From positions 7,288-58,758 of the forward strand of contig MHPA01000016.1 of NCBI GenBank assembly GCA_001820255.1: DNA of 51,471 nt, in the 5' to 3' direction. Below the pieces are notes generated by a model, which saw only the letters and a list, made by a program, of their open reading frames with translations, ran no database searches and was not told where the DNA came from. This DNA is from Candidatus Staskawiczbacteria bacterium RIFCSPLOWO2_01_FULL_38_12b (lineage in GTDB: Bacteria; Patescibacteriota; Minisyncoccia; Minisyncoccales; Staskawiczbacteraceae). The position numbers were made by a program, and so were the translations under genes. Shown here piece after piece: positions 231-48,097 of the stretch. Numbering within the stretch: position 1 is the first letter of the stretch; each line of letters starts with the position of its first letter.

Positions 231-2228
231 TCATGTTATTATGTTTAAAAATTCTTTTTCGCTGATGATGGCGACTTTAAGTTTTTGCGCTTTGGCTAAT
301 TTTGAACCGGGGTTTTTGCCTGCCACCAAAAAATCAGTATGGGCAGAAACCGACTCTGAAATGTTACCGCCCAGCGCCCTGACTTTTTCTTTGGCAAGAT
401 TACGGTCAATGGCATCCATGGTGCCGGTAAAAACAAACATTTTGCCCGATAACTTTCCTTGGGATAATTTTTTGGGATTTTTTATCACAATACCAACCTT
501 ATCAAATTTATCCAAAAGCCTGATATTGCCCTTATCATTAAACCACTGATGAACCGATGCTGCAACCACCGGACCGACATGCAACATTGATTCAAAATCA
601 GATAACGTGGCATGCTTTAATTTTTCCAAAGAGCCAAAATGCAAAGCCAGATCCGCCGCCGTTTCTTGGCCGATATTACGAATACCCAGTGCATACAAAA
701 ATTTTGCCAGGGTTATTTCTTTTTTTTGGGCAATTGATTCTATCAGGTTTGCCGCTGACTTTTCTGCAAACCGTTCTAAAACAGCAACATCTCCTTCTTT
801 TAATTCAAACATATCGGCAAGATCCAAAACTAACCCTTCATCTAATAATCGGTCAATAATTTTAGGGCCCAACCCTGCAATATCAAAAGCTCCCTTGGAA
901 ACAAAGTGGTAAAAGTTTCTGCGCTGGCGCGCAAAACATTTTTGATTGAGGCATCGCCACACCACGTCTTCCGCTGATTTTTGCAATGCGGTTTTACAGC
1001 TAGGACAAACCCGCGGCATGGTAAAACTTTTTTCCCGGCCGGTTCTTAATTCCGGCAGCACTTTTATGATATTGGGAATCACATCCCCTGCACGCCCCAC
1101 AATGACACTGTCGCCGATTTTTACGTCCAGCCTTTTTATTTCATCTTCGTTGTGCAATGTGGCTCGTGAAATAGTAATACCCGATAACGAAACCGGTTCT
1201 AAAACGGCTACCGGAGTAATGGCTCCAGTACGGCCCACTTGCAATCGTATATCTAAAATGTTAGTGGTAGTTTGATTTTGGGGAAATTTAAAAGCAATGG
1301 CGCCGCGGGGAGTTTTGCCCACTACTCCTAATGTTTCAAATAAAGCATGGTCATTAACCATAACCACCACGCCATCAATTTCATAGGGCAATTCATTGCG
1401 ATGCTTGCTCCAATATTGATGAAAAGAATATACTTGATCTAAAGATTTGCAGTACTTGTTATTATTATTTATCTTAAATCCCAGTTCTTGCAAGGCGATA
1501 TGTTTTTGCTGGTGGGTGTCAGTTTTATATCCGCCAATAATATCGTAAGCAAAAGAATCCAAGTTTCTGGAAGCGGTTATTTTAGGATCAAGCTGCCTTA
1601 CAGAACCGGCGGCGATATTTCTTGGATTGGCATATAAAGCCAAACCTTTTTCTTTTTGGATTTTATTTATCGCATTAAATTCTTTTTTAGAAATAAAAAC
1701 TTCCCCGCGCACCACCAAAGACGGAACTTTGGTGTGCAGGGCAAGGGGGATGGATTCCACCGTTTTGATATTTTGGGTAATATCTTCGCCAACCGAGCCA
1801 TCTCCCCGAGTGGATCCGGTTTTTAACAGGCCGTTTTCGTATTCAAGTTCAATGGCCAAGCCGTCTATTTTTAACTCGCAGTAAAAATCTATCTGATTTT
1901 TTTTTGCCGGGGGTAACAGTTTTAAAACCCTAGCGAGCCACTCTTGCATATCCTCTTTTGAAAAAGCGTCGTTTAACGAAAGCATTCTTTCCCGATGTGT
2001 CACTTTTTTAAATTCTTTAAGGGGCTGGCCTCCTATCCTTTGCGTAGGCGAATCAGAAGTAATAAATTCCGGAAATTGTTGCTCCAAATCAAAAAGCTCT
2101 TTTTTTAAAGAGTCCAGTGCCGCATCTGATATTTCTTGCTTATCCAATACGTGATACAGATATCGATGATGATTAATAAGATCCCGAAGTTTTTTTATCC
2201 TTTGGGAAATTTCATTTTTTTGAGCCAT
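231..2228 (-). CDS. ligA: NAD-dependent DNA ligase
   Basis: 665-aa ORF with the adenylation motif CELKIDG (KxDG), a four-Cys zinc finger (CPSC...C..KC), an HhH region and a C-terminal BRCT-like end (FVFTGTM...GGNISESVS). Confidence 0.95.
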   Translation of the reverse strand: MAQKNEISQRIKKLRDLINHHRYLYHVLDKQEISDAALDSLKKELFDLEQQFPEFITSDSPTQRIGGQPLKEFKKVTHRERMLSLNDAFSKEDMQEWLARVLKLLPPAKKNQIDFYCELKIDGLAIELEYENGLLKTGSTRGDGSVGEDITQNIKTVESIPLALHTKVPSLVVRGEVFISKKEFNAINKIQKEKGLALYANPRNIAAGSVRQLDPKITASRNLDSFAYDIIGGYKTDTHQQKHIALQELGFKINNNNKYCKSLDQVYSFHQYWSKHRNELPYEIDGVVVMVNDHALFETLGVVGKTPRGAIAFKFPQNQTTTNILDIRLQVGRTGAITPVAVLEPVSLSGITISRATLHNEDEIKRLDVKIGDSVIVGRAGDVIPNIIKVLPELRTGREKSFTMPRVCPSCKTALQKSAEDVVWRCLNQKCFARQRRNFYHFVSKGAFDIAGLGPKIIDRLLDEGLVLDLADMFELKEGDVAVLERFAEKSAANLIESIAQKKEITLAKFLYALGIRNIGQETAADLALHFGSLEKLKHATLSDFESMLHVGPVVAASVHQWFNDKGNIRLLDKFDKVGIVIKNPKKLSQGKLSGKMFVFTGTMDAIDRNLAKEKVRALGGNISESVSAHTDFLVAGKNPGSKLAKAQKLKVAIISEKEFLNIIT

Positions 2229-2229
2229 A

Positions 2230-2718
2230 TCAATCGGAATTTAATTCAATTTGCCTGACTAAATCCTGGTAAAGCCCTTTTGAATGGATTAAAAAATTTG
2301 AAACACTTTCAACAGTGGTTACTGTTGCATCCACCGTATAGGTTCTGCCGCCAAAAGCGGATTCATAGGTAATTTCACAATTTGTGCAATCATCAACTGC
2401 GCAACCGCTAGCAACCAGTGGCGTAGCCATGCAAATATTGCATTGGGTATCCGGATCAGTGCTAAGATTACTGCAGGCATCGCATAGATTGCACACCCCC
2501 CTATTTGCACCACCTACCAGTTGTTTTCTATCAAAATATAAGGTTTTTTCTATCCCGCTATCGGCAGCAAAAAATGAAGATATAGAGTTTCCTATACTGC
2601 CCAATGCTTTAATCTCATTAGATAATATCGTACTTATAGATAATATAATAGCAAGCATGATGGTCATGATAAAAAAAGAAATAATAACAGAAACCCCTTT
2701 TTGTGAATTATGATACAT
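2230..2718 (-). CDS. PilX-like minor pilin / pilus-associated Cys-rich membrane-anchored protein
   Basis: The N-terminus QKGVSVIISFFIMTIMLAIILSISTIL resembles a PilX_N-type hydrophobic anchor without the G|F cleavage motif. The exposed part has 10 Cys. It is the last gene of the pilus cluster. Confidence 0.5.
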   Translation of the reverse strand: MYHNSQKGVSVIISFFIMTIMLAIILSISTILSNEIKALGSIGNSISSFFAADSGIEKTLYFDRKQLVGGANRGVCNLCDACSNLSTDPDTQCNICMATPLVASGCAVDDCTNCEITYESAFGGRTYTVDATVTTVESVSNFLIHSKGLYQDLVRQIELNSD

Positions 2719-2800
2719 GTAAATTAATTTCTATTAAATATATAATGACTTAATTTCTAAACACCGACGACGGTTTTGAAAATTTGTTTTATTGATAATT

Positions 2801-2845
2801 GATTGAAAATTGTAAATTGAAAATTCTGCGCCGCATATGGCGCAG
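2801..2845 (+). repeat. GATTGAAAATTG...AAAATTCTGCGC element with GC hairpin (copy 1)
   Basis: GATTGAAAATTGTAAATTGAAAATTCTGCGCCGCATATGGCGCAG. The hairpin is CTGCGCC-GCATAT-GGCGCAG. Confidence 0.85.
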
Positions 2846-2848
2846 TTG

Positions 2849-3496
2849 CTATGGTATATTTAAGTTTCTTGCCGAAACCGTAGTTTGGATTATCTTTTGC
2901 TGCTGGCTTCCAGGGATATTGCTTGTCGCAGCCAATACAATAGTTACTCTTGGCTGGATTGCGTCGGCATCAGATGCAGTGCGCGCCGTTTTATCTCCGT
3001 TAATAATAAAATTGGCGTTGTTTATGGTATATTTAACCCCTCCTGACATAAAAGGAGAGATCGTAACCGGATCTTGCCCCCAATCAGAAACCTTTAGGGC
3101 ATTGTTTTCAAAATAAAATTCTGTCTGGCGGCTACTGTCCGATGAATTAATAAATTTTATACCACTACAAGCTTCAGTGACGCCATTATCACAGTGTGTA
3201 AGCACATACATATTACCCTGACCTAAAAACCCGCCAACCACAGTATCTTTTTCGGCGGTCCTGATGGCCTTTGACATATATTCCATGGCGTAACTGGCCT
3301 GATTTAATATTTCCTGCTGTTGCAACATTCTTTTTTGATGCTGCACCATTGAAAGGAAAATACCTGCCAAAACGCCGATAACAATTAAAAATATCGACAA
3401 CACCACTATCATTTCTATGATAGTAAATCCTTTCTGCTTTATGGAACATGGAACATGGAACATGGAACAAATTACACTTTTTGGATAGTACTCCAT
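2849..3496 (-). CDS. Prepilin-type N-terminal cleavage/methylation domain protein (pseudopilin)
   Basis: Class III signal motif KQKGFTIIEMIVVLSIFLIVIGVL. The first 11 codons are encoded by the (ATGGAAC)4 repeat, so the real start may be the Met at 3463. Confidence 0.8.
   Translation of the reverse strand: MEYYPKSVICSMFHVPCSIKQKGFTIIEMIVVLSIFLIVIGVLAGIFLSMVQHQKRMLQQQEILNQASYAMEYMSKAIRTAEKDTVVGGFLGQGNMYVLTHCDNGVTEACSGIKFINSSDSSRQTEFYFENNALKVSDWGQDPVTISPFMSGGVKYTINNANFIINGDKTARTASDADAIQPRVTIVLAATSNIPGSQQQKIIQTTVSARNLNIP
3441..3468. repeat. Tandem heptamer (ATGGAAC)x4
   Basis: Perfect 4 x 7 nt. On the minus strand it reads (GTTCCAT)4 and is translated as MFHVPCS at the start of the pseudopilin ORF. 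Confidence 0.95.
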
Positions 3497-3552
3497 AACA
3501 TTTTACCGATCTCTTCACTTAATAATATTGCCTTTTTGTAGTCGGTCTCCAT

Positions 3553-3711
3553 TAGACCTGTTGCGAAATAAGAATCTACTGCAAATTCCATATTTTTGCC
3601 AAAAATTTGCAATAATTTTCAAACTTAGCGAAGCTAAATTTTAAAATTCTATCAAATTTTTGGCTAAAAATCTGAAATTTTCGTTGCGATTCTTATTTCG
3701 CAACAGGTCTA
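3553..3711. repeat. Long imperfect hairpin A (arms TAGACCTGTTGCGAAATAAGAATC / GATTCTTATTTCGCAACAGGTCTA)
   Basis: 24-nt perfect terminal inverted repeat at 3553-3576 and 3688-3711. Inner arms GCCAAAAATTTGCAATAATTTT / AAAATTCTATCAAATTTTTGGC, apex TTAGC-GAA-GCTAA. It contains the 3' end of the four-helix-bundle ORF. Confidence 0.9.
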
Positions 3712-3979
3712 TTAAATAATTTTCTTTTAAGGAAAAATGCAAAAGATACTTTGCTTCTTTTAAGGAACCATAAGAAATTTCTAAGAAGTTCCTATACACC
3801 TTACTTTTTATTCTGGCATAACCCTCTATATAATTTAATATCACAGAAAGCGCAGATCTTCTTAATTGAGAAGTGACCCCATATAGTTCGTCTTTAGGGA
3901 AATTCTTACTAATTCTATAAACCAAATGAACAAATTCATCCATCTTAATCTTTAAATTTTCGTGAAATCGTTGTTCCAT
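3641..3979 (-). CDS. Four-helix-bundle protein (23S rRNA intervening-sequence protein family)
   Basis: 112 aa. The stretch LYGVTSQLRRSALSVILNYIEGYARIKSKVYRNFLEISYGSLKEAKYLLHFS matches the family signature (Q.rRa..Si..NiaEG......f..fl.ia.GS..E....l). Its last ~23 codons lie inside long hairpin A. Confidence 0.8.
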   Translation of the reverse strand: MEQRFHENLKIKMDEFVHLVYRISKNFPKDELYGVTSQLRRSALSVILNYIEGYARIKSKVYRNFLEISYGSLKEAKYLLHFSLKENYLIDLLRNKNRNENFRFLAKNLIEF

Positions 3980-3980
3980 G

Positions 3981-4001
3981 TTATGTGTTTTATGTTATGT
4001 G
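3981..4001. repeat. Tandem heptamer (TTATGTG-like)x3, reading (CACATAA)n on the minus strand
   Basis: TTATGTG TTTTATG TTATGTG, immediately upstream of the four-helix-bundle ORF start. Confidence 0.9.
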
Positions 4002-4004
4002 ACA

Positions 4005-4538
4005 CTAGTACCAATTGTACAAATATTCGGCAGTATTAAAACTATATGACTGGCTATTGTAGCTCCATGTCACCAATACGTCCACATACAATACATCATC
4101 TGTTCCTGATACCGGACTTATAGTAATTTCTCTTTTGAATATTGTGGGGGTGCTTCCTACGTCATGGTCATAAAGACCGTCGCCATTTAACCCTAAAAAA
4201 CTACCATCATAGGGAACCAACAAAGAAGCAGTTTGGGTTTTATAGTCTGCCATGCATCCTGCAATACAACCCACAAGTCCGTCAGACCACGAAAAAGTGG
4301 GATTTTGGGAAATGGTAATAAAATTATTATCCCTTAGATTTCTTATTATTTCCACTCCTTCCTGAGCCAAATAAGCTGCGGTAAAACGGTTGGAAATAAT
4401 ATAGCTTGAACTCACCAGCCAAAAAAAGGCCTGGTAAACTAACATGACCCCAAAGGACAGGATTGAAATGGTAATGATCATTTCAATTAACGTAAACCCA
4501 GCCGCCTTTTTTTGTTTTTTAAATAAATTTTTCATCAT
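4005..4538 (-). CDS. Prepilin-type N-terminal cleavage/methylation domain protein (pseudopilin)
   Basis: KKAAGFTLIEMIITISILSFGVMLVY class III signal peptide, followed by a 177-aa beta-rich tail. Confidence 0.8.
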   Translation of the reverse strand: MMKNLFKKQKKAAGFTLIEMIITISILSFGVMLVYQAFFWLVSSSYIISNRFTAAYLAQEGVEIIRNLRDNNFITISQNPTFSWSDGLVGCIAGCMADYKTQTASLLVPYDGSFLGLNGDGLYDHDVGSTPTIFKREITISPVSGTDDVLYVDVLVTWSYNSQSYSFNTAEYLYNWY

Positions 4539-4545
4539 GGTTTAT

Positions 4546-4706
4546 TAGACTTGTCCCTAAATAAAATTCGGAGCGAAAATTCAAGATTTCGGAGCGGCAA
4601 ATGTGATAGAATTTTTAGATTTAGCTTTAGCTAAGTCTAAAAATTATGGCACATTTGCCGCCGAAAGGTTGAATTTGCAGCCGAATTTTATTTAGGGACA
4701 AGTCTA
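4546..4706. repeat. Long hairpin B (arms TAGACTTGTCCCTAAATAAAATTCGG / CCGAATTTTATTTAGGGACAAGTCTA)
   Basis: 26-nt perfect inverted repeat filling the whole spacer between two pseudopilin genes. The core GATAGAATTTTTAGATTTAGCTTTAGCTAAGTCTAAAAATTATGGCA is related to the core of A, in opposite orientation. Confidence 0.9.
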
Positions 4707-5321
4707 TTGAACCTCTGCTAAACCCGCATTATTTACGTAGGCATTTTTAGTTTGTGTCGGATCAATTTCAGATTGGAAAGTAATAGTTAGTTCAAGTAAT
4801 CCATCAGGGCAATCCGGGTCGGGATCCCCCGCACAATCCGATGTCCATAGGATTTTTGTCAGCGGAATCGGAGGCAAAAAATCAACAGACGCCTTATCAA
4901 CACTATCTAAATTGCTCATTACCACCCCTGGCTCAAGATTAACCGTTTCTACCACATAATCCGTGATTGATCCGTCATAAAAACGATTCCCATCAACGTC
5001 AGCATACATGACATATTGTTTTGGATTTGCCAGATCAACATACACTCCATACCCTTCTACCTGATGCAAAACACCTTCAGAGTCCCTGTATTGGCTAGTC
5101 GATAGGGCCATGCCTTGCACCCTTCTTATATCCTGCGCAAATTTATAGGCAGTCCTGGAAAGAGCAAATTGTGATCGGGTTTTGGTAAAATTTGAAATTA
5201 AAATAACTAAAAGCATTGAAGTAACCGCAACCACGACTATTAATTCAACCAGAGTAAATCCAGCATCACTTTCGTCAAACAATCGAAATTTAGTTATTAA
5301 CGTATTGTTACGATTGAACAT
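4704..5321 (-). CDS. Prepilin-type N-terminal cleavage/methylation domain protein (pseudopilin)
   Basis: DAGFTLVELIVVVAVTSMLLVILISNF motif. The track ORF extends to 5465, but that extension runs into hairpin D. The Met at 5321 (MFNRNNTLITKFRLFDESDAGFTLVE) gives a normal leader. Confidence 0.75.
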   Translation of the reverse strand: MFNRNNTLITKFRLFDESDAGFTLVELIVVVAVTSMLLVILISNFTKTRSQFALSRTAYKFAQDIRRVQGMALSTSQYRDSEGVLHQVEGYGVYVDLANPKQYVMYADVDGNRFYDGSITDYVVETVNLEPGVVMSNLDSVDKASVDFLPPIPLTKILWTSDCAGDPDPDCPDGLLELTITFQSEIDPTQTKNAYVNNAGLAEVQ

Positions 5322-5349
5322 AATAGGCTCACTGATTAAACCTTTATTA

Positions 5350-5553
5350 AGGCCTCGTCCACAAATAACATCCACCTTTTCATCCAATTTGTGCACCATC
5401 TGCGTCCCAAAAAATAGCATGCGTAGCCTTACTACGCCTCCTATTTTTTTGAACACATCTGGCACACATCTTAGTAGGGACGCGAGGCATAATTTGTAGC
5501 AACAAATTCGCCCCGTCCTCGAAAAGCCTGGATGTTATTTGTGGACGAGGCCT
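5350..5553. repeat. Long hairpin D (arms AGGCCTCGTCCACAAATAACATCCA / TGGATGTTATTTGTGGACGAGGCCT)
   Basis: 25-nt perfect inverted repeat between a pseudopilin gene and pilD. The apex contains GCGTAG-CCTTA-CTACGC. Confidence 0.9.
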
Positions 5554-6376
5554 AAAACACCAAAAAATGCGTATACCAAAAAATTATCTGGTCGCCAAAA
5601 AACATTGCCAAAAATGTTCCTAAAATGAGAAACGGAGCAAATGGCAGTTCGCTTTTTAATCCCTTTTTGCCAAAAAACATCAACCCTAACCCTATTATAG
5701 CACCAAAAAAGAAAGACAAAAATAGACCCGCCAAAATATTGGGAAACCCCAGCACCAGGCCCAGTAAGATTGCCAATTTTACGTCGCCAAAACCCATCCA
5801 GCGACCCTTGGATATTAAATAAATAGAAAGAAAGAAGCCAGAGGCAATTAAGGCAGCTAAAAGAAAATTTCCAATACCTAATACCCAATTTCCAATGAAA
5901 ACACTATAAAGCAAACGAAAAATAAAAGTAATTGCTATTGCCGGGAATAAAACCTTGTCGGGGATTAAGTAAAATTTTAAATCATAGACAAATATAACTA
6001 TTAAAACCGAGGCGATATACCATAAGAATAATAGATCAATAACATTTAAAAATTGAAAAATTTCAAATTGATTGATGATTGAAAATTGAAAATTGAAAAT
6101 TAGCAAAAATATCAATCCGGTCGCCACTTCCACCGCCGGATATTGCCATGATATTTTTTTATGGCAATAACGGCAACTTCCTTGTAAAAAAAGATAACTT
6201 ACCACCGGAATCAAATCCAGCCACATTAATTGATGGCGGCACCGGGGGCAATACGATCTGCCTTTTACGAAACCTTCGTCTTTTTCTAATCGTAAAATCA
6301 CCACATTCAAAAAACTGCCGATACAAAGACCGATCAAGAATACAAGAAAAGAAAAAGTAGTATTGACTTCTATCAT
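5552..6376 (-). CDS. pilD: Prepilin peptidase / N-methyltransferase (A24 family)
   Basis: N-terminal CPRCRHQL...CRYCHKKISWQYP zinc-ribbon motif, eight hydrophobic segments, and FGDVKLAILLG / GAIIG aspartyl-protease motifs. Confidence 0.9.
   Translation of the reverse strand: MIEVNTTFSFLVFLIGLCIGSFLNVVILRLEKDEGFVKGRSYCPRCRHQLMWLDLIPVVSYLFLQGSCRYCHKKISWQYPAVEVATGLIFLLIFNFQFSIINQFEIFQFLNVIDLLFLWYIASVLIVIFVYDLKFYLIPDKVLFPAIAITFIFRLLYSVFIGNWVLGIGNFLLAALIASGFFLSIYLISKGRWMGFGDVKLAILLGLVLGFPNILAGLFLSFFFGAIIGLGLMFFGKKGLKSELPFAPFLILGTFLAMFFGDQIIFWYTHFLVF
6080..6100. repeat. Tandem heptamer (TGAAAAT)x3 inside the pilD coding sequence
   Basis: Perfect 3 x 7 nt within an AT-rich low-complexity tract at 6048-6103. 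It is translated on the minus strand as FNFQFSIINQFEIFQF. Confidence 0.9.
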
Positions 6377-6444
6377 TCAGTTATTTTACCACAAAATCTC
6401 AGAGGGAAAAAATGACCTATTTCGGTCAGATAGTTATATGATTT

Positions 6445-6529
6445 GACACGCGATAGCGAATGTCGCCCCCTGATAAAAACCAAACCTAAAATATCGACAA
6501 TGCTCTTGTACAAGCGGTAGCGTTCACAA
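6445..6529 (+). repeat. Two copies of a small hairpin motif (TGT.C.AG.G.TAGCG...ACA) downstream of the PaaX-like gene
   Basis: GACACGCGATAGCGAATGTC (6445-6464) and TTGTACAAGCGGTAGCGTTCACAA (6506-6529). Confidence 0.7.
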
Positions 6530-6548
6530 CGGTATAACTTATTGAAAT

Positions 6549-7064
6549 TTATAAATCAAAATGGTTTTTCAACCTAACGTCATCATAGATATTATCTGCA
6601 ATAATAATATTAACAAAATCACCTATGTCGAAAAACTCGGATAAAAAATGGACCTCCTTCTCGCATGGGTAGGGGCATACAAAAACACTTTTTTGTAATT
6701 GGTAAAAGTTTAATTCTTGTAATTTTTGCCTTAAGGCATCTCTTCCATTTTTCTTTTTTTCCGGAATATCAAAAGCCACTATACGCCACTTTTTATCCCA
6801 AACTTTCTGTTTTGTAATCTCTAGCTTTTCAATATTAATTTCTTTAATTTTTCTTTTTCCCTTCTTTGTGAGTTGTATAATAAATTTACCATCTTCTTTC
6901 TCCTGTAAAATAATCAGTTTATTTTCTCTTAATCTTCTTAGAGATTTCACTATTTTTTGCTCATTAGTTTTGTTTTTACTATATTTTTTATTTTTGATAA
7001 TCGCCCTCGCTATATTTATTAAAAAATAAGGCGATGTAGATGCAACAACCACCATACCAGCCAA
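6549..7064 (-). CDS. PaaX-like winged-helix plus Cas2-fold domain protein (putative regulator)
   Basis: WDKKWRIVAFDIPEKKKNGRDALRQKLQELNFYQLQKSVFVCPYPCEKEV resembles the Cas2-like/PaaX middle domain. It is preceded by a wHTH-like KSLRRLRENKLIILQEK segment. A hydrophobic N-terminus may start further upstream at a non-ATG codon (the in-frame stop is at about 7107). Confidence 0.45.
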   Translation of the reverse strand: MAGMVVVASTSPYFLINIARAIIKNKKYSKNKTNEQKIVKSLRRLRENKLIILQEKEDGKFIIQLTKKGKRKIKEINIEKLEITKQKVWDKKWRIVAFDIPEKKKNGRDALRQKLQELNFYQLQKSVFVCPYPCEKEVHFLSEFFDIGDFVNIIIADNIYDDVRLKNHFDL

Positions 7065-7135
7065 AGCGATAGTGAGAAGAATTTCTTTAGTTATTGTATC
7101 TTTCTTTCATTGCCATAGTATAACATAAGACTAAC

Positions 7136-7273
7136 CTTGTGCAAGCGATAGCGCCTACAAGAACAACAACTAAAAAAAGAAACCCTCAAAGTTTTAGCTT
7201 GGCTTAGAATGACACTACCCCTGCCCGTAGTATCATGCAAAAATACTCTTGTGCCAGTGATAGCGTTCACAGA
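7136..7273 (+). repeat. Two further copies of the same hairpin motif upstream of the PaaX-like gene
   Basis: CTTGTGCAAGCGATAGCGCCTACAAG (7136-7161) and CTCTTGTGCCAGTGATAGCGTTCACAGAG (7246-7273). The copies at 6506 and 7246 share CTCTTGT.C.AG.G.TAGCGTTCACA. Confidence 0.75.
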
Positions 7274-7319
7274 GTTAACAAGTAATGTTTAATGCCAAAA
7301 AAGAATACTATCATTTCAG

Positions 7320-7350
7320 AGGCTTTGGAGGGTCCGACCCTCCAAAGCCT
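7320..7350. repeat. Perfect 15-nt-arm palindrome
   Basis: AGGCTTTGGAGGGTC-C-GACCCTCCAAAGCCT. Confidence 0.9.
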
Positions 7351-7457
7351 ATTATTATAATTTTTGGAACAAAAAATGGCGTCAGTCCATAAAGTGTCAG
7401 TCCATAAAGCAAAATAAATAAAATAAAGCCTGCTGCTTATTTTATTGCCCGCTTATC

Positions 7458-7499
7458 AATAACAAAACAACAGGTTTTGACACCTGTTGTTTTGTTATT
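7458..7499 (-). terminator. Probable terminator hairpin after the major-pilin gene
   Basis: AATAACAAAACAACAGGT (7458-7475) pairs with ACCTGTTGTTTTGTTATT (7482-7499), an 18-bp perfect stem. The 3' arm on the minus strand is U-rich. It lies 51 nt downstream of the pilin stop. Confidence 0.55.
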
Positions 7500-7549
7500 A
7501 CATAACGACCAATCCCGTTTCTCATTAAAAAATAATCCCAACAAACTAA

Positions 7550-8011
7550 CTAACCATCAGTACAAACTCCCACATCAGCAGTAACACATCTATCTGCACA
7601 GGTAGCTACGGTTACTTTTTTGTAACCAGTGGTGTCTACACAAAAAGTGCTACCAGCGGGTTCGCTACTAGTAGTATTCATAGTTGAACAAGCACAAAAA
7701 GCACTGGCTATTTCACTATAGGTGACAGTACCACCTGACGCCGCATCAGCTGCGTCTGCAGGATTTGTGTAAGATGCAGTTAAAACAAAATCAACATATG
7801 TACTAGGATTTGCGTCATCATAATATACTGCCGCATTTGTTAATATGGTTGACATATTTCCCTTTATATTAGCGTTCTTACTCTTGCCAATATATTGCGT
7901 TACGTTAACCAATACAATACCAGTTAATACCGCAATAATAGCAACAACTACCAATAATTCAATGATAGTAAAACCTTTTTTATTACGAGACGAATTTATT
8001 ATTTTTTGCAT
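7550..8011 (-). CDS. Type IV pilin (major-pilin-like)
   Basis: NKKGFTIIELLVVVAIIAVLTGIVLVNV class III signal and alpha1-N helix, with C-terminal Cys pairs. It is followed by a strong hairpin at 7458-7499. Confidence 0.85.
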   Translation of the reverse strand: MQKIINSSRNKKGFTIIELLVVVAIIAVLTGIVLVNVTQYIGKSKNANIKGNMSTILTNAAVYYDDANPSTYVDFVLTASYTNPADAADAASGGTVTYSEIASAFCACSTMNTTSSEPAGSTFCVDTTGYKKVTVATCADRCVTADVGVCTDG

Positions 8012-8139
8012 TTTTTAAATTAATTTATTTAATTAAAAGATCTCGACCTTTTTAAATATCTTGATTAACACTATTATAATATTTATAAGCACAATACTCA
8101 ATAATAATAACTGTGGATAACTTGTACTTTTAAATACTG

Positions 8140-8628
8140 CTATGGAAGCTGAAAACAGTGCGCAAGAGAAGCGGTGCAAATATTAATACAACCGCCTATG
8201 TCATTAAATTTTTGCTTTGTTCCAGTAGAATCAACGCAAAAAAGATCGTTTGCGGTAATCATTAATGCTGAACAAGCACACCAGGCGGTATTGCTAGCAT
8301 TAACCTGGCAAACAGGAGAAAAACCACCATTGGCGGAAATAATTGCATCATAAATTGGTTTTCCAGAAACCATATAGGTAGCGCAAAGGTTGGCATAGGT
8401 GCCGTTGCCCAATGCAGGATCTTCAAAGTATGCCGCTGAATTAATCAATAAAGAAGATAGGTTCCCTTGAATCGCAGAATTTTTCCCCCTGTTAACATAT
8501 TTGGTTATATTCGCCAACACAATGCCAGTTAAAACAGTAATAATAGCAACTACTACCAATAGCTCAATAATGGTAAATCCAGCACCATTTTTACCCTTTG
8601 CACTTTTAATATTATTTACCATATACAC
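8140..8628 (-). CDS. Type IV pilin (paralog)
   Basis: GAGFTIIELLVVVAIITVLTGIVLANI, with N-terminal helix near-identical to the neighbouring pilin and a divergent Cys-containing head. Confidence 0.85.
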   Translation of the reverse strand: MYMVNNIKSAKGKNGAGFTIIELLVVVAIITVLTGIVLANITKYVNRGKNSAIQGNLSSLLINSAAYFEDPALGNGTYANLCATYMVSGKPIYDAIISANGGFSPVCQVNASNTAWCACSALMITANDLFCVDSTGTKQKFNDIGGCINICTASLAHCFQLP

Positions 8629-8691
8629 TATAATGTAATTTTTTTATAATATGAGGATTTTCGTCAAAAATGGTGTCAAGTTTTTTGATTT

Positions 8692-9900
8692 TTATACATT
8701 CCCCAAAGTGGAATACAGGGGAGCAAATACGGAAATCGCCAAAAGACCCACAACGACCCCTAAAAATATAATCAACATGGGTTCTAAAAGGGTCAAAAAC
8801 AAATCAATGGACCGCTTAATCTCTTTTTGGTAAAAATTTACCACTTCCATTAGTGTTTTGTCCAGTTTGCCGGTTTCCTCACCCACTTTAATCATTTGGA
8901 TAACAAAAGAAGGAAAATAATCCTGGTGCTTTGCCAAAACAGAGCTGATTTTTTCCCCTTCAGAAACCCCTTTTTCCACTTCGTTTACAATTAGCTTATA
9001 CACACTGTTGTTGACCGTATCTGATGTGATTTTTAACGAATTATTAATTGAGATTCCCGCACTCATCAAAGTAGAAATATTACCGCAAAATCTGGCAAGA
9101 AATACTTTGCGAAAGATATCGCCTAAAAACGGTATTTTTAACGAATAGGTGTCGTATAATTTTTTACCCTGGGCTGTTTTAAAATAAAAAATAATAAAAA
9201 CCACAAAAATAAAAAACGCTGATAGTATCATCCACCAAAAATTCCCCAAAAAGGCGTAAAAATTAAGCGTAATAACGGTAAAAGTCGAGGGGTCAATACT
9301 GGATTGCCTGATAAGGTCTTCAATTTTAGGAAGCAAGAAAATAATAATAATGTTAACCACTACAAAAAGAACCGATATGGTAAACAGGGGATAAATCATC
9401 GCCTGGCGCACTTGTGCAATAATATCGTGTTCTCGTTCCAAGTGATCCGAAATATAGTAAAGGGTTTGGGAAATTTTTCCAGAAATTTCACCGGATTTAA
9501 TCAAATTCACATAAAAAGTGTCAAACACTTTGGGAAAATGGCCAAATGCTTCTGAAAGCGACACGCCTTCCTCTACCAAGCCAGCAACCTCCAAGATAGT
9601 TTTTTTAAAATTATCCTTATTGGTTTGCACTGCTAAACTAGAAAGGCTTTGCATAACCGGAACCCGGGATTCCAGCATCACCGCCAGCTGGCGTGAAAAT
9701 ATCGCAAGATCTTTTTTTGAGACATTTCTCTCAAATTTTATATTTTTTAAAACAAATTGCCCCGTATTTTCTTCGGTTAATGAGGTTACAAAAATATTAT
9801 ATTTTTGCAAAATAGCGGCGGCAATTTCCGGAGAAGAGGCTTCAATAATTCCTGTTTCCGATTTGCCATCTTTGGTTCTGGCTTTGTAGTTAAACTTCAT
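8692..9900 (-). CDS. pilC: Type IV pilus platform protein (GspF/PilC family)
   Basis: 402 aa with a duplicated T2SSF-type domain, three TM segments and a C-terminal LEPMLIIFLGVVVG motif. Confidence 0.9.
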   Translation of the reverse strand: MKFNYKARTKDGKSETGIIEASSPEIAAAILQKYNIFVTSLTEENTGQFVLKNIKFERNVSKKDLAIFSRQLAVMLESRVPVMQSLSSLAVQTNKDNFKKTILEVAGLVEEGVSLSEAFGHFPKVFDTFYVNLIKSGEISGKISQTLYYISDHLEREHDIIAQVRQAMIYPLFTISVLFVVVNIIIIFLLPKIEDLIRQSSIDPSTFTVITLNFYAFLGNFWWMILSAFFIFVVFIIFYFKTAQGKKLYDTYSLKIPFLGDIFRKVFLARFCGNISTLMSAGISINNSLKITSDTVNNSVYKLIVNEVEKGVSEGEKISSVLAKHQDYFPSFVIQMIKVGEETGKLDKTLMEVVNFYQKEIKRSIDLFLTLLEPMLIIFLGVVVGLLAISVFAPLYSTLGNV

Positions 9901-9918
9901 TTTAATGCGATGCTAATA

Positions 9919-10093
9919 TACTTTGAATTACGAAACTCACCTTGAAAACGAGTTTCGGGGTCTTTTTCCCAGATTTTGGCTACAAATTCGCTATAACTTT
10001 TAAACTTATGCGTGGCTAAGTTTAAAAGTTCTATCAAATTTCTATCTCAAAATCTGAAAAAAATCCCTCCGAAGAGTTTCGTAATTCAAAGTA
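9919..10093. repeat. Long hairpin C (arms TACTTTGAATTACGAAACTC / GAGTTTCGTAATTCAAAGTA)
   Basis: 20-nt perfect inverted repeat filling the pilC-pilT spacer. The core AAACTTATGCGTGGCTAAGTTTAAAAGTTCTATCAAATTT is related to the core of A. Confidence 0.9.
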
Positions 10094-10103
10094 ATATACG
10101 AAT

Positions 10104-11180: not shown

Positions 11181-11270
11181 TAATTAACCTAATTATTCTA
11201 ATTAATCTAAATAAATCTCAATTCTTTAAAGTTTAGAATAATTAGAGCAATTAGAGTAATTAGGTTAATT
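11181..11270. repeat. Hairpin built from inverted tandem 9-mers (ATTANTCTA units)
   Basis: Left arm TAATTAACCTAATTATTCTAATTAATCTAAA, right arm TTTAGAATAATTAGAGCAATTAGAGTAATTAGGTTAATT. It fills the pilT / REC-gene spacer. Confidence 0.85.
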
Positions 11271-11635
11271 TATTTTAAAATTTCTTTTACTGCCTTAATG
11301 ATATCTTCCGGGGTGCTCTGTATCTTTAAAAAATATTTAATTACTCCCAAGTGCGCAATATCATCAAGGTGTTCTTGTTTATCAAGATTTGAAACAATGA
11401 TTACTTTTAGATTTTTTAAACTTTGATCGCTTCGTATGGTTCTTAAGAGTTCCCACCCATCCATGTTGGGTAAAATAATATCTAACACCAATAAATCGGG
11501 GTAATTATTTTTTAATTTTTCCAAAGCCATTTTGCCATCTTTTGCGGTATCTATCAAAAAACCCTCCTTCCGAAACTGGTTGGCATAAATGTCTACAATA
11601 AATGGATCGTCTTCGACTAATAAAATCTTTTTCAT
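11270..11635 (-). CDS. Stand-alone response-regulator receiver (CheY-like)
   Basis: 121 aa. ILLVEDD acidic pocket, LLVLDIILPNMDG phospho-acceptor Asp, IIVSN and K residues. No output domain. Confidence 0.85.
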   Translation of the reverse strand: MKKILLVEDDPFIVDIYANQFRKEGFLIDTAKDGKMALEKLKNNYPDLLVLDIILPNMDGWELLRTIRSDQSLKNLKVIIVSNLDKQEHLDDIAHLGVIKYFLKIQSTPEDIIKAVKEILK

Positions 11636-11654: not shown

Positions 11655-11735
11655 CCTACGAATTACGAATCTTTGCGAATTACGAATACGGTTTTCGTAT
11701 TATTCGTAATTCGCAAAGATTCGTAATTCGTAAGG
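11655..11735. repeat. Hairpin built from inverted TACGAAT heptamer units
   Basis: CCTACGAATTACGAATCTTTGCGAATTACGAATACG pairs with CGTATTATTCGTAATTCGCAAAGATTCGTAATTCGTAAGG (stem of about 36 bp with small bulges). It fills the REC-gene / pilB spacer. Confidence 0.9.
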
Positions 11736-15298: not shown

Positions 15299-16366
15299 CT
15301 ACTTCTCCAGTCCTCCCAAGGCCACCCCTGTCGCCGCTGAAAACCTGGGAGCCATTATCTTAAGGGTTTGGTCAAGAATCGGGGGGTATAAAAATTCTGA
15401 AAAACAATTTGGAACGTATACTTCTTTTTTAAGGCTTTCGGCAAAATACTCTTTTAATCCCGGCAGATTGGCCGTGCCTCCTGTCAAAAAAATTTCGTCA
15501 ATTTGCTTTTGCCCTCCGTGCAAAAACTCAGCACAAACGCCTTTTATTTCAATTAAGAGGGGAGACAATAAAAGATATAAGGTTTTAACTACGTCGCTTC
15601 TTGGATGCAAAAGTCCTTCTTTATTTTTTATGTTTTCTGCTTGATCCAAAGCTACCCCCAATCCAGAAGAAACCACATTTGATAATTGGCTGCTGTTAAA
15701 GGTGAAACTGTAGCTCTTTTTTAAAAAACCTTTTTCAATAATGTTTATGGTTGAACTCTGAACTCCGATATCCACCAAGCAGACTATTTTTTTATTATTT
15801 CTTATCAACGCCCTGGTAATACCCAGCGCTTCGGCTTCCAGGGCGTATAACTGGAGACCGGCCATTTTTGCCATGGCCTGATACTCTTGGATCACTTGAT
15901 TTGGCACCGCCAGTAAAAATACTCCAAATGAAGAATTTTTACTACCGGGTGAATTTGGCATTATCTTCCAATCCAAGGTAACCTCCGAAATGGGCAGGGT
16001 GATGTATTGAGATGCATTATAACGGATGGCTTCCGGAATTTCTTTTTCCGTCATAAAAGGAATATCAAACGAAGTGCAAAATGTGGAAAAATCAGGTATG
16101 GAAAAAATGGCTTCTTTTGTTTTTATTTTTGCCTCCTCTAAAATTCCCCGTATGGCCTCTGAAGTAACATTATTTGAAAGCAAGTAACTGCCCTTTTGGG
16201 TATTTGACAAGGATTCCTTGTAAAGATATTCTGATTTTATCTCGCCGTAATTTTCCAATGTTTTGCCTTCCCCCCAGCGGGAAATTTCCACCACCTTAAC
16301 AGAGGAAGTGCCAATATCCACCCCGATCATTTTTTTAGGGAAAAACATTTTAAAGGGATTAAACAT
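15299..16366 (-). CDS. pilM: Type IV pilus assembly protein PilM (actin-like ATPase fold)
   Basis: 355 aa. IGVDIGTSSVKVVEI phosphate-1 motif, VCLVDIGVQSSTINI, and IFLTGGTANLPGL. Confidence 0.85.
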   Translation of the reverse strand: MFNPFKMFFPKKMIGVDIGTSSVKVVEISRWGEGKTLENYGEIKSEYLYKESLSNTQKGSYLLSNNVTSEAIRGILEEAKIKTKEAIFSIPDFSTFCTSFDIPFMTEKEIPEAIRYNASQYITLPISEVTLDWKIMPNSPGSKNSSFGVFLLAVPNQVIQEYQAMAKMAGLQLYALEAEALGITRALIRNNKKIVCLVDIGVQSSTINIIEKGFLKKSYSFTFNSSQLSNVVSSGLGVALDQAENIKNKEGLLHPRSDVVKTLYLLLSPLLIEIKGVCAEFLHGGQKQIDEIFLTGGTANLPGLKEYFAESLKKEVYVPNCFSEFLYPPILDQTLKIMAPRFSAATGVALGGLEK

Positions 16367-16370: not shown

Positions 16371-16533
16371 AATTTGAAATTTGAAATTTACCCGCCTGCG
16401 CCAAGGCTTTGGCGGGCAGGCAATTTGAATTCAATATTTCAATGATTAAATACTTTAATTTGAAAACACGACAGATTTTAATTATTTCAAATTTGATATT
16501 TTCAAATTGATTTCAAATTTCAAATTTCAAATT
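16371..16533. repeat. Divergent pilM/comF spacer: inverted (AATTTGA)n blocks plus a GC-rich hairpin
   Basis: AATTTGAAATTTGAAATTT at the left and AAATTTCAAATTTCAAATT at the right. The GC hairpin is at 16391-20 (CCCGCCTGCGCC...GGCGGGCAGG). It shares the ATGATTAAAT motif with 28146-28282. Confidence 0.8.
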
Positions 16534-17306: not shown

Positions 17307-17334
17307 TAACAAACCTTATTAAGTGACAAGTCTA

Positions 17335-18906
17335 CTAAAGATCGTTTCCCGAATAAGACAAATTAAAACTTTTGTTAATTAAAGGAAAATCCGGCACCAC
17401 ATTTAAAGGACCAGCTTCTCCAACCAAGGACCAATTTAAAAATGACGGATCACAGGGCGCAACCCTGCTTATGTTCCCCGCCAAGTCAGTGGTGATAACA
17501 TATATTATTTGACCTCTCCATCCTTCAACCATGCCAATGGCCAGGGCATTTTTTTTAAATACCGTGGTATTGCGAGGGGTCAAGATGGGGCCCTTCGGTA
17601 ATTTAGTTAATGCATTTTGAATAAGGTTCATTGAAGCATAGACTTCTTTAACACGGACCCGAAATCGGGCATACACATCACCGCCCGACTCAGTTTCGAT
17701 GGTATTAAAACCTAATTCATCATAGGCCGCATAGGGAAAATCAACACGTATATCGCTCAAAATGCCCACTGCTTTGGCGGCAACCCCCAGGGCGCCGTAA
17801 TCTTTAGCGGTTTTTGGCAAAAGCACGCCGGTGCCTTTTAATCGATTTAAAAGCGAGGCGCTATTTTGGGCAATTGCAATGATTTCAAAAAAATCTTTTT
17901 GTATCTTTTCAAGGTCTTTGCCTAAAACAATTATTTCTTTGGCATTAATGTCTTTGGTAACTCCTCCAATAGTGTTTACATTGCGCAAAAATCGGCTTTT
18001 GGTCAGCCTTTCATTAATTTGCATGATCATTTCTCGTAACCTTGCCCCATTTGCACCGCCAAAATTAAATCCCGTATCAATCATGATGGCGCCAATATCG
18101 CCAAAATGGTTTGCCAGCCTTTCTAATTCTGCATATATAACGCGTAAATAAAGAGCACGTTTTGGAGGCAAAGCATCGCTTAATTGTTCTGCCGCTTGGC
18201 AAAAAGCCAATGAATGGCTAAACGAACTATCACCGGAAATTTTCTCACAAAGACGTAATTTATTACTAAGGGGAAGCGTTTCAAATAACTTTTCACTGCC
18301 TTTATGGACAAATCCAAGTTTTGCTTCCAAGAGCATAATTTCTTCTCCAGCCACGCTAAACCTAAAGTGGCCCGGCTCTATGATTCCCGCATGGATCGGG
18401 CCGACGGGAATTTCATATATCCCTTCACCCTCAACTTTTTGGAATTGATAAGTTCCATGGATTTCTTTTACTTTTGTCTGCCAGTCAAAATCCTTTCTTA
18501 ATGGGAATAGATTAGCCGGCCAGTTTTCATGCAAAATGATGGGTCGCAGGTCGGGATGCAAAACAGGAGTGAGGCCAAAAAAAGTGTGTATCTTTTTTTC
18601 AAAATTACAAGCGCTATGGATAGCCGGGGTCAGTGAAGGAAATGTAACGGTATTTTGCAGACGAATAAAAGGCACCACAAACATATTTTTTTTTGAAATG
18701 CCAAACACATACCAAATTTTAAACCCCTCTTTTTCTGCTCTTTCGTCAGTTGCGGTGATTAGGTGCAGTGGCAGGTTTTTATTAGCATGCAAATTAGTTG
18801 CGATTTCTTTGATATGCAAAGCTGGCACTTCAAAGAAAGCGATATTGCCGCAAATTTCAACTTTTACGTTTTTGGGGAGGTATTGTTGTATGTCTTCTAT
18901 ATTCAT
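17335..18906 (-). CDS. Fused NuoC-like / [NiFe]-hydrogenase large-subunit-like protein (HycE/HyfG/NuoD family) lacking all four metal-binding Cys
   Basis: The N-terminal 30-kDa (NuoC) domain is followed by YEIPVGPIHAGIIEPGHFRF. The L1 position reads EKISGDSSFSHS instead of ERxCGxCSxxHS. The C-terminus reads SFNLSYSGNDL instead of S.DPCxxCxDR. Start chosen at the Met at 18906, because the track start overlaps the upstream gene. Confidence 0.85.
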   Translation of the reverse strand: MNIEDIQQYLPKNVKVEICGNIAFFEVPALHIKEIATNLHANKNLPLHLITATDERAEKEGFKIWYVFGISKKNMFVVPFIRLQNTVTFPSLTPAIHSACNFEKKIHTFFGLTPVLHPDLRPIILHENWPANLFPLRKDFDWQTKVKEIHGTYQFQKVEGEGIYEIPVGPIHAGIIEPGHFRFSVAGEEIMLLEAKLGFVHKGSEKLFETLPLSNKLRLCEKISGDSSFSHSLAFCQAAEQLSDALPPKRALYLRVIYAELERLANHFGDIGAIMIDTGFNFGGANGARLREMIMQINERLTKSRFLRNVNTIGGVTKDINAKEIIVLGKDLEKIQKDFFEIIAIAQNSASLLNRLKGTGVLLPKTAKDYGALGVAAKAVGILSDIRVDFPYAAYDELGFNTIETESGGDVYARFRVRVKEVYASMNLIQNALTKLPKGPILTPRNTTVFKKNALAIGMVEGWRGQIIYVITTDLAGNISRVAPCDPSFLNWSLVGEAGPLNVVPDFPLINKSFNLSYSGNDL

Positions 18907-18920
18907 AATGATGGGTACGT

Positions 18921-20390: not shown

Positions 20391-20415
20391 ATAGTTTACT
20401 TTAAATTACTTCAAA

Positions 20416-21063: not shown

Positions 21064-21076
21064 TTAACAAATAGAA

Positions 21077-22009: not shown

Positions 22010-22011
22010 GG

Positions 22012-24060: not shown

Positions 24061-24217
24061 ACCTCTAAGAAACTGTTTAGTAACCCCATATTTGCGCTAA
24101 AGTTATTTTTCCCGGCTGCAAATTTGCTGTCATTCGTCGGCTTGCCACACGGGCAAACCTCCTTACGCTATCAAATTTTCGCTCAGGAAAAAAAACTTTA
24201 TCATCAAAAGAGGGTTA

Positions 24218-24745
24218 TTAAACAGTTTCTAATATTTCAAGAATATGTAAAAGTCCGTAAAGAATTGCTTTAGGGCTTGGCGGATCTCCCGGAATAGCAT
24301 AATCTACCGGTATCAGGGCATTGACTCCACCAACAACCGCATAAGAATTTTTATAGATACCGCCGTCTATGGCATCATCGCCAACCGCTACTACAATTTT
24401 TGGATTAGGGGTTGCTTGGTAAGCTCTTGTTAAAGCTTCTGCCATATTACAAGTTACCGGACCGGTTACCAAAAGCATATCCGCATGCCTTGGCGAAGCA
24501 ACAAAATGGATTCCAAAACGCTCAATATCATAAAAGGCATTGGAAAGAGCAACCAGTTCCTGTTCGCAAGCGTTATCGGAACCGGCATCTACTTGCCGTA
24601 TCGCCAAGGAACCCTTAAATAATTTCCTTACCTTTTGTTGTATTTTTTCACCGATAACGATAATTTCCGTTTGCTCTTTGGTAATCTCGGTTTTTGAAAT
24701 AGTGAGCCTTGGATTTTTTAGTATTTTTAAAAAAAGTTTAAACAT
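24218..24745 (-). CDS. NuoB / HycG-like small subunit with Fe-S ligands replaced (Cys to Asp at 3 of 4 positions)
   Basis: DIERFGIHFVASPRHADMLLVTGPVT is the NuoB/HycG core. The ligand positions read GSDNACE (canonical GSCNGCE), VGDDAIDGG (G.CA..GG) and IPGDPPSP (PGCPP.P). Confidence 0.85.
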   Translation of the reverse strand: MFKLFLKILKNPRLTISKTEITKEQTEIIVIGEKIQQKVRKLFKGSLAIRQVDAGSDNACEQELVALSNAFYDIERFGIHFVASPRHADMLLVTGPVTCNMAEALTRAYQATPNPKIVVAVGDDAIDGGIYKNSYAVVGGVNALIPVDYAIPGDPPSPKAILYGLLHILEILETV

Positions 24746-24951: not shown

Positions 24952-25021
24952 AATCAAGATACTACCATACTAGTTACCATTTTTCAAATTTGCAGTAAAT
25001 TCTTAATACGCAACAGGTCTT

Positions 25022-25435: not shown

Positions 25436-25453
25436 AGCATTATTAAACAAATT

Positions 25454-25536: not shown

Positions 25537-25576
25537 GCTTTTGTAATTAATATCGAAGATTAACTCTTATTTAGAC

Positions 25577-31185: not shown

Positions 31186-31366
31186 CATGGACATCACATC
31201 CAGAAACCGCACTTAAGTCGCCGGCGGTCTGGCAATATTGGGCGGCTTGGAGCAAAAAGTTTGCGAGGCGTAGCCGTAGCTACAGCTCGCACACTTTTTG
31301 TGAAAACTGCCCAAGACTGACAAATCCGGCAAGACTTGGAGTGCGGTTTCTGGATGTGATGTCCAT
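31186..31366. repeat. Long hairpin F (arms CATGGACATCACATCCAGAAACCGCACT / AGTGCGGTTTCTGGATGTGATGTCCAT)
   Basis: 27-28-nt perfect inverted repeat. The apex CAAAAAGTTTGCGAGGCGTAGCCGTAGCTACAGCTCGCACACTTTTTG carries the same GCGTAGC...GCTAC apical motif as D and E. Confidence 0.9.
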
Positions 31367-36700: not shown

Positions 36701-36766
36701 TGAGCCAATCTACGTTTTTGGGTAACGGAAAAAATAAAGAATCTTTGAATTAATAACATTCTGTAA

Positions 36767-47883: not shown

Positions 47884-47890
47884 GTTTTTT

Positions 47891-48097
47891 AATTTACCTT
47901 GAATTACCAAATGCTTTAGCGGTATTTTTCCCGAATTCGGAGATAGAAATTTGATCTGCCTGTGCAAAAGCAGACAGGTAGAATTTTTAGGCGTAGCTAC
48001 GCATACGCATAAAAATTATAGCAAATTTATAGCCCGAATTCGGGAAAAAGACCCGAAAATTCTTTTTCATGTGGCATTTCTAAATTCAAGGTAATTT
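47891..48097. repeat. Long hairpin E (arms AATTTACCTTGAATTACCAAATGC / GCATTTCTAAATTCAAGGTAATTT)
   Basis: Imperfect outer arms, inner arms TTTTTCCCGAATTCGG / CCCGAATTCGGGAAAAAG. The core GGTAGAATTTTTAGGCGTAGCTACGCATACGCATAAAAATTATAGCAAATTT is related to the core of B. Confidence 0.85.

Follow-up and report, generated by a model that had tools for sequence, protein, structure and literature searches.

Miniature inverted-repeat transposable elements of bacteria (MITEs), QMITE of Coxiella among them, insert between genes, also within operons, and the RNA transcribed from them is predicted to fold into long stem-loops (PMC10969869). In the Correia elements (CREE/NEMIS) of Neisseria, RNase III cleavage at the inverted repeats is documented (PMC2649163, PMC10969869). 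We analyzed a 51,471-nucleotide stretch of Candidatus Staskawiczbacteria bacterium RIFCSPLOWO2_01_FULL_38_12b (contig MHPA01000016.1, positions 7,288 to 58,758), referred to here as the window. An earlier note on this DNA had described six long hairpins, A to F, in the spacers of a pilus operon and at other loci, and had called them MITE-like. We found that hairpins A, B, C, and E, together with a fifth copy, are very probably a nonautonomous MITE-like element of Candidatus Staskawiczbacteria. The term was well chosen, as these hairpins have terminal inverted repeats, target-site duplications, many copies, and an exact empty site in a near-identical strain. They are a new family of a known kind of element and not a built-in regulator of the pilus operon.

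Six hairpins and one family of elements

All six hairpins are present where the note had placed them. Their terminal inverted repeats are 20 to 33 nt long (the note had given 20 to 28 nt) with 85 to 100% complementarity, and folding confirmed that each region is one long stem on either strand. The minimum free energies range from -65 to -118 kcal/mol (z = -8 to -18 on both strands, against dinucleotide-preserving shuffles). A sliding fold of 220 nt over the whole window returned no more than nine outlier regions, which include all six hairpins.

The proposal that the six form one family held for A, B, C, and E and failed for D and F. The core common to A and C on the minus strand and to B and E on the plus strand is real and not an accident of AT richness. 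The pattern TAGAAYTTTWA-N(8-38)-AAARTTATNGCNMATTT has four matches in the window, precisely these four hairpins (0 expected by chance), and pairwise local alignments between family members reach z values of about 30. The fifth copy, at 24068-24230, which the note had overlooked, has the same core (profile hidden Markov model [HMM] E = 1.7e-25). D and F were not detected by the profile HMMs of either class described below, were not significantly similar to any of the five members in pairwise alignment (z ≤ 2.8), and had no copies in the loci that we fetched from related genomes (about 300 kb from about 12 genomes). By these comparisons, D and F are not supported as members and appear to be separate hairpins.

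To follow the family beyond the window, we searched with the core pattern and with nhmmer profiles. The core pattern occurs at 40 loci in the species-representative genome collection, 37 of which are in metagenome-assembled genomes (MAGs) of Staskawiczbacteria or in MAGs labeled "uncultured Saccharibacteria." Judged by their proteins, the latter MAGs are in fact Staskawiczbacteria-like: against the window proteins, their LigA is 70% and their RecG 81% identical, the same as in named Staskawiczbacteria. No viral contig matched the core pattern (0 matches). The nhmmer profiles gave 72 hits in the fetched loci and the window, including about 21 elements in the fetched parts of the MAG MHOW. The roughly 300 kb from related genomes contains about 70 copies. 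Three of the MHOW copies are 98 to 99% identical to each other and lie at different loci with different flanks. The copies are 157 to 260 bp long and AT rich, and they have no coding capacity; the sole overlap with an open reading frame (ORF) is read-through from an interrupted gene.

The termini are conserved across genomes and define two classes. Class 1 is about 158 bp long, runs from AGACCTGTTGC to GCAACAGGTCT (that is, AGACCTGTTGC…GCAACAGGTCT), and has a 3-bp duplication (ATT, ATA, or AAT); A, B, and the fifth copy belong to it. Class 2, with C and E as members, is about 172 bp long (CYNTGAATTACGAAA…TTTCGTAATTCANRG) and has an AT-rich duplication of 6 to 8 bp, mostly 7 bp. Both classes have a common core of about 100 nt, …AAATTTGATAGAAyTTTTA, then an apical stem-loop, then TAAAArTTATnGCrAATTT…. 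The copies in the window are listed here with their duplications and with the two parts of the gene that element A interrupts.

3554..3710, minus strand: element A, class 1, 157 bp, inside a four-helix-bundle gene; empty site on contig L048; nhmmer E = 9e-35
3551-3553 and 3711-3713: 3-bp duplication of element A, ATT on the plus strand
3711..3979, minus strand: N-terminal part of the PF05635 gene, about residues 1-89, from the Pfam match and reconstruction
3472..3553, minus strand: displaced native C-terminal part of the PF05635 gene (...METDYKKAILLSEEIGKMLWSTIQKV*), from translation, excision, and the intact protein P0121
4547..4705, plus strand: element B, class 1, 159 bp, antisense to the pilus operon, from the profile HMM and flank analysis
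4544-4546 and 4706-4708: duplication of element B, ATT
9921..10091, minus strand: element C, class 2, 171 bp, between PilT and PilC
9914-9920 and 10092-10098: 7-bp duplication of element C, TAATATA on the plus strand
24068..24230, minus strand: fifth copy, degenerate class-1-like, between NuoL-like and NuoB-like genes, with no intact duplication; found by nhmmer
47897..48091, plus strand: element E, class 2, 195 bp, with a GC-rich mini-hairpin insert of about 24 nt
47890-47896 and 48092-48098: 7-bp duplication of element E, TAATTTA

Element E is not alone in having such an insert. In the arms of some copies there are additional GC-rich mini-hairpins about 25 nt long, such as TCTGCCTGTGC…GCAGACAGG and CCTTCGGGATGNCC…GGGTCAAGG, and these recur between copies (window positions 47954-47977, about 4085-4110 in L034, 4352-4586 in L023, and 1-672 in L060). 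The class-2 copy in L060 is about 390 nt long and has four of these inserts and a 7-bp duplication, CTTGAAG.

Target duplications and insertion sites

Element A provides the most direct evidence of movement. The annotated ORF at 3641-3979 (112 amino acids [aa]) reads into element A and ends in ...KNLIEF-stop, overlapping the family core. From this, the note had taken the core to be the coding 3' end of the four-helix-bundle gene and had read B, C, D, and E as gene-less derivatives or as independently maintained RNA structures. We found instead that the KNLIEF-stop tail is element sequence read in frame past an insertion. The Pfam match of the ORF covers residues 12-90 only and ends at the boundary of element A. 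The native C terminus (...LLSEEIGKMLWSTIQKV*), which is canonical for the protein family, lies downstream of element A on the same strand, and excising element A yields a full-length PF05635 match (positions 8-105 of 106, 89.8 bits versus 79.3 bits). The 115-aa protein predicted by excising the 157 bp and the 3-bp duplication is 100% identical to a database protein, P0121. This protein is encoded on the public contig L048, which was obtained from a sister sample and matches window positions 1241-5990 at 99.87% identity.

On contig L048, element A is absent exactly, together with one copy of the duplication. The empty site reads TTTAAT|GGAG, and the filled site in the window reads TTTAAT[157 bp]AATGGAG. 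With more of the flanks included, the empty site is …TTATTTAATGGAGACC… / …GAAAATTATTTAATGGAGACC…, and the filled site is …TTATTTAAT[AGACC…157 bp…GGTCT]AATGGAGACC…. Because the empty site is exact and the full-length gene is restored, element A interrupts the gene and does not derive from it, and the uninterrupted 115-aa gene on L048 leaves B, C, and E no such origin either. Element A is a recent insertion into the four-helix-bundle gene with a 3-bp duplication.

The interrupted gene has surroundings of its own. Inverted runs of a 7-nt repeat flank it on both sides: (ATGGAAC)n lies downstream and CACATAACATAAAACACATAACATGGAACA upstream (window positions 3441-3469 and 3970-4005). Neither L046 nor L047 has the gene in its orthologous operon. 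The gene resembles a small inserted cassette with a stem around it.

Duplications are also evident across the family. As a control, we paired the flanks of different copies. Exact, flush direct repeats of at least 5 nt flank 19 of 44 class-2 copies, compared with about 1.5% in the control; eleven are 7 nt long, five are 6 nt, two are 5 nt, and one is 8 nt. For class 1, an exact 3-nt repeat, the same on both sides, flanks 12 of 16 copies, compared with 30% in the control. A 2-bp TA duplication, as in IS630 or Correia elements, had been a candidate and was replaced by the 3-bp and roughly 7-bp lengths on the basis of the empty site and these flank statistics. Taken together, these data show that the family moves as DNA with staggered target duplications and that it is still active in the sampled groundwater population.

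Strain contigs that cover E, F, and the fifth copy have the hairpin present in each case. Other public contigs of the same strain stop at an element boundary or inside an element: L003 and L005 at 10093, L061 to L063 at 24230, and L057 inside E (48051). In L062 and L063, the left end of the 24068-24230 copy continues into another flank. This suggests that the genome has a second, near-identical copy of the fifth element elsewhere.

The pilus operon is where several of these insertions can be compared with uninterrupted DNA. On the minus strand, its gene order is PilB, response regulator, PilT, [C], PilC, two pseudopilins, PaaX/Cas2-like, PilD, [D], pseudopilin, [B], pseudopilin, the PF05635 gene containing [A], pseudopilin, a hypothetical gene, and LigA; the identities of the genes are those that the note had supposed. 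It had also observed that B and C fill the pilus spacers to the nucleotide. The observation is correct, and the cause is insertion into spacers that were originally a few nucleotides long. When B is removed with one copy of its duplication, the sequence becomes …CAA TAA ACC ATG…, with a 3-nt spacer. B inserted into the upstream pseudopilin gene at its stop codon, where the terminal AG of B regenerates a TAG stop. By reading of the sequence, if the ends of D are GGCC…GGCC, D has TAA/TAA flanks and its end provides the TAG stop of PilD.

The pilus operon of a relative, L047 (PilC 75% identical), is compact. Its PilT-PilC spacer is 3 nt, and its other gaps are 4 to 7 nt or overlaps. We found no hairpins, no four-helix-bundle gene, and, by profile HMM, no copy of the family in the L047 pilus operon. 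In another relative, L046, small PDDEXK_3 and GIY-YIG genes occupy those pilus spacers (9567-9959, 11257-11460, and 15410-15661). It seems that small selfish elements of different kinds have landed repeatedly in the spacers of the pilus operon.

The same preference holds elsewhere. Among 38 copies whose positions we determined, all except A are intergenic, often 0 to 20 nt from both neighboring genes. Their orientation relative to codirectional neighboring genes is random (12 co-oriented and 16 anti-oriented). These data show that, in this compact genome, the elements go into the very short, AT-rich spacers or into stop codons, with one copy inside a gene. Insertions are therefore tolerated only where a packed genome leaves tiny AT-rich gaps, and each then makes up the whole spacer.

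Hairpin structure, mechanism, and alternative explanations

The copies diverge by 10 to 30% from one another, and each is still almost perfectly paired. Of the cells in the class-2 alignment, 96.6% are paired, and both sides have changed in 42 of 64 pairs; none of 500 shuffles reached this. When the pairing register was shifted by 1 to 3 columns, pairing fell to 34 to 58%. We then counted mismatches in 60 copies with a palindrome alignment that is blind to wobble pairs, reading the strand that has GATAGAA 5' of the apex. On this strand, G·T occurs 173 times and A·C 42 times, and A·G plus G·A occur 292 times versus 46 for C·T plus T·C. By element, G·T exceeds A·C in 49 copies and the reverse is true in 4. 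Counted by alignment column, G·U versus A·C is 26 to 11 in class 2 and 15 to 9 in class 1 (41 versus 20 in all). The column counts are the safer figure because the copies are related and some mismatches are inherited; reading of the alignments gives the conserved 5'-GAUAG/3'-CGAUA motif as an example. The consensus fold energy is -69.8 kcal/mol for the sense (GATAGAA) strand and -42.0 kcal/mol for its complement.

The bias of G·T over A·C is alike in co-oriented (26:3) and anti-oriented (45:8) copies. Since orientation is random and the bias is the same in both groups, it is the element, and not host transcription, that determines which strand is favored. These comparisons suggest that a single-stranded form is important to the element itself.

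We propose the following mechanism. Transposases acting in trans would make the staggered cuts that move family members, a step that we suggest because of the target duplications only. As the duplication lengths differ, there would probably be a separate transposase for each class. Only source copies with an intact sense-strand hairpin would propagate, by way of a single-stranded RNA or DNA form, which would then be part of the life cycle of the element. This step is proposed because compensatory changes keep the pairing and because the tolerated mismatches, G·T and A·G, fall on one strand whatever the direction of host transcription. A cotranscribed copy, in either orientation, would place a duplex of about 70 to 80 bp in the operon mRNA, where RNase III could cut it. 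Processing of element transcripts by RNase III, which the note had raised together with an uncoupling of pilus gene expression, is plausible by analogy with Correia elements. Such cleavage is likely a side effect and not a selected role, because orientation is random, the strand-specific pairing is independent of orientation, and the insertions are absent from orthologous operons. An internal promoter in the 5' arm of class 2 (TTGAAT-18-TATTTT) was considered and rejected; from reading of the alignment, both hexamers vary between copies, and a promoter scan was not above chance.

The reading of these hairpins as a mobile family whose single-stranded form matters has several points that weigh against it. 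We found no autonomous element or transposase with matching termini, either among the window ORFs compared with Pfam or beside solo termini in the fetched loci, where solo terminus matches are chance hits or truncated copies. The two classes, with different termini and duplication lengths on one core, are an unusual combination. The copies are related, so the per-element asymmetry overstates their independence, and the column counts are moderately significant only. Part of the invariance of the core is built in, as the search pattern required the core. The single-stranded form, whether RNA or DNA, is read from sequence comparison.

Two other explanations treat the hairpins as something other than mobile DNA. 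The stems could be cis-regulatory RNAs of the pilus operon, RNase III sites or stabilizers that would uncouple the expression of neighboring genes, which the host selects and keeps independently in each spacer. Such a role would suit very stable duplexes placed exactly between consecutive genes, with covariation that preserves pairing, and it has a precedent in the RNase III cleavage of Correia elements within mRNAs (PMC10969869). We consider it improbable: orthologous operons lack the hairpins, dozens of unrelated loci have the same element, the copies are flanked by target duplications, and element A disrupts a gene and is polymorphic between strains that are 99.87% identical. The random orientation (12 versus 16) and a favored strand that is independent of host transcription also argue against it. 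To the proposal that the elements are gene-less derivatives of a cassette of the 23S rRNA intervening-sequence type, with a stem that includes the 3' end of the four-helix-bundle gene, we give almost no credence. The annotated ORF 3641-3979 does end inside element A, where it overlaps the core. However, its Pfam match stops at the element boundary, the true C terminus lies downstream, excision restores the full-length match, and a near-identical strain has the gene uninterrupted; for element A, the empty site refutes the proposal. No rRNA signature motif, from a set of five short conserved 16S and 23S sequences, occurs in any fetched locus.

It is also conceivable, although we think it unlikely, that selection acts on the core hairpin of about 100 nt itself, as a strand-specific structured RNA or a single-stranded DNA signal for recombination or transposition, and that the termini are only its vehicles. 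This would explain why two classes with unlike termini and duplication lengths have the same core, and it agrees with the strand-specific G·T and A·G mismatches and with a symmetric AUAG/AUAG internal loop that, from reading of the alignments, is conserved. Against this, no conserved promoter or terminator is evident (the candidate -35 and -10 sequences vary, and the promoter scan is not above chance), there is no Rfam match, no partner protein was identified, and ascertainment by the search pattern accounts for part of the conservation of the core. If it were true, the AUAG/AUAG loops, with their A·G mismatches, would be a protein recognition site, and the elements would be vehicles for a functional hairpin or for a hairpin-dependent transposition route and not simple deletion derivatives of an insertion sequence. 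We favor the nonautonomous MITE-like family as the explanation for A, B, C, E, and the fifth copy.

Other features of the window and comparison with known systems

Besides the five copies, the window has two remnants or candidate remnants of class 1 and hairpins D and F.

About 24978..25020, plus strand: truncated class-1 remnant, 3' arm only, about 43 nt, adjoining tRNA-Ser
17316..17334, plus strand: candidate class-1 terminal remnant, about 19 nt (TTATTAAGTGACAAGTCTA), weak evidence
5350..5553: hairpin D, termini class-1-like, interior GC richer, apex like a two-way terminator
31186..31366: hairpin F, 52% GC, 27-nt perfect arms, no flanking duplication, no family similarity, no other copy seen

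The remnants bear on two possible solo termini that had been proposed. The one at 25009-25020 is the end of the truncated 3' arm, and the one at 17325-17334 is at best the remnant of about 19 nt. A terminal subfamily of A, B, and D had also been suggested; the termini of D are class-1-like (17 of 24 positions are identical to B in an alignment by eye), and its interior is unrelated to the family. D and F have a weak likeness to each other at the apex (z = 3.9). The apices of D (5405-5450) and F (31250-31300) each have an A-tract, a GC-rich stem (GGCGTAG…CTACGC), and a T-tract. The D apex scored as terminator-like on both strands, and the F apex is similar by eye. In sequence, each is like an intrinsic terminator that works both ways, set inside a long outer stem.

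A metagenome scan with the D terminus found no copy of D, in a collection that seems to be without the source genome, so the result says little. The terminal 19 to 21 nt of D (GGCCTCGTCCACAAATAAC) has exact single matches in five unrelated contigs, L049 to L053, with GC contents of 49 to 56%. In at least two of these contigs, L049 and L051, the matches contribute to short hairpins (GTCCACAAA…TTTGTGGAC); there are two sites of this kind in L051. The number of matches is near a rough chance estimate, and they could be due to chance or to a distant repeat family.

Further intergenic hairpins lie at 11657-11732, 11182-11270, 16371-16533, 45530-45606, and 36714-36798, and their arms are short tandem repeats (ACGAATT, TAATTAG, AATTTGA, and CTAGGG). 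Related genomes have copies of 16371-16533 (L007 and L023), of 11182-11270 (L030, L018, L020, and L036), and of 11657-11732 (L027). The last of these holds a class-2-like terminus (CTTTGCGAATTACGAAT) and may be a mini-derivative.

The host, from its PilC homologues, is Candidatus Staskawiczbacteria (Patescibacteria, candidate phyla radiation [CPR]) of groundwater metagenomes; the homologues with 98% and 87% identity have no contigs on record. Within the pilus operon, the PaaX_M/Cas2-like gene (6549-7064) is followed by a 485-nt spacer with two strong hairpins. This gene is present in L046 and absent from L047. At 17335-24745, the window has a gene cluster that resembles complex I or a membrane-bound hydrogenase, with a fused 30-kDa/49-kDa subunit, two antiporter-like subunits, and NuoH, NuoK, and NuoB homologues; to our knowledge, CPR lineages usually lack respiratory complexes. 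At 25022-26494, an ORF with a LAGLIDADG domain and one with a Hint domain adjoin two tRNA-Ser genes and the truncated class-1 remnant, and the region looks like a small cluster of selfish elements.

CPR genomes are small and tightly packed, and a MITE family is abundant in this one, with about one copy per 10 kb in the window. The family explains "spacers" of 160 to 200 nt in otherwise gap-free operons, truncated gene calls such as the 112-aa ORF, and contig breaks in public assemblies. It offers a clean natural setting in which to ask how operons tolerate insertions of long duplexes and why a MITE keeps a strand-specific hairpin. In practice, the family should be masked in annotation, and its insertion polymorphisms can serve as strain markers.

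Among known systems, the family is most like the bacterial MITEs, such as QMITE, in being small, AT rich, and noncoding, with terminal inverted repeats, target duplications, and many copies. Nezha and Chunjie are further bacterial examples. We found no sequence relation to the described MITEs, and the family differs from them in its CPR host and in having two classes of termini and duplications on one core. A literature search found no paper that describes MITEs in CPR bacteria.

The Correia elements, hairpin-forming repeats of about 100 to 155 bp that are cotranscribed with their neighbors, are similar in these respects and are the model for the processing idea. They have a TA duplication and a 26-bp Correia terminal repeat, whereas the family has duplications of 3 bp and 6 to 8 bp and its termini (AGACCTG... 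and CYNTGAATTACG...) are unrelated to the Correia repeat. We saw no evidence in the family for promoters, IHF sites, or cleavage. The intervening sequences of 23S rRNA and their S23p/four-helix-bundle genes have in common with the family long extended stems and a sporadic distribution, and one copy here is at a PF05635 gene. The family differs in that its copies lie between protein-coding genes (one lies inside a gene) and have duplications, and the PF05635 gene is a victim and not cargo. No rRNA was found in the Rfam scan of the window, where only tRNAs reach the gathering threshold; the subthreshold matches of the elements are generic microRNA-precursor hairpins (22 to 31 bits, against thresholds of 60 to 230).

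In integron attC sites and the ends of IS200/IS605, structure is conserved above sequence, one strand is functional, and mismatches are conserved, which is reminiscent of the family. Unlike the family, these make no target duplication, and they need a nearby integrase or HUH transposase; we saw neither enzyme here. The repetitive extragenic palindromes and mosaic elements mobilized by RAYT (REP/BIME) are palindromes of 20 to 40 nt without duplication, in contrast to about 160 to 175 nt with duplications, and Pfam scans showed no Y1 transposase among the window ORFs. Compared with all these systems, the less usual traits of the family are one core under two classes of termini and duplications, conservation of structure on one strand only, and activity in a natural CPR population.

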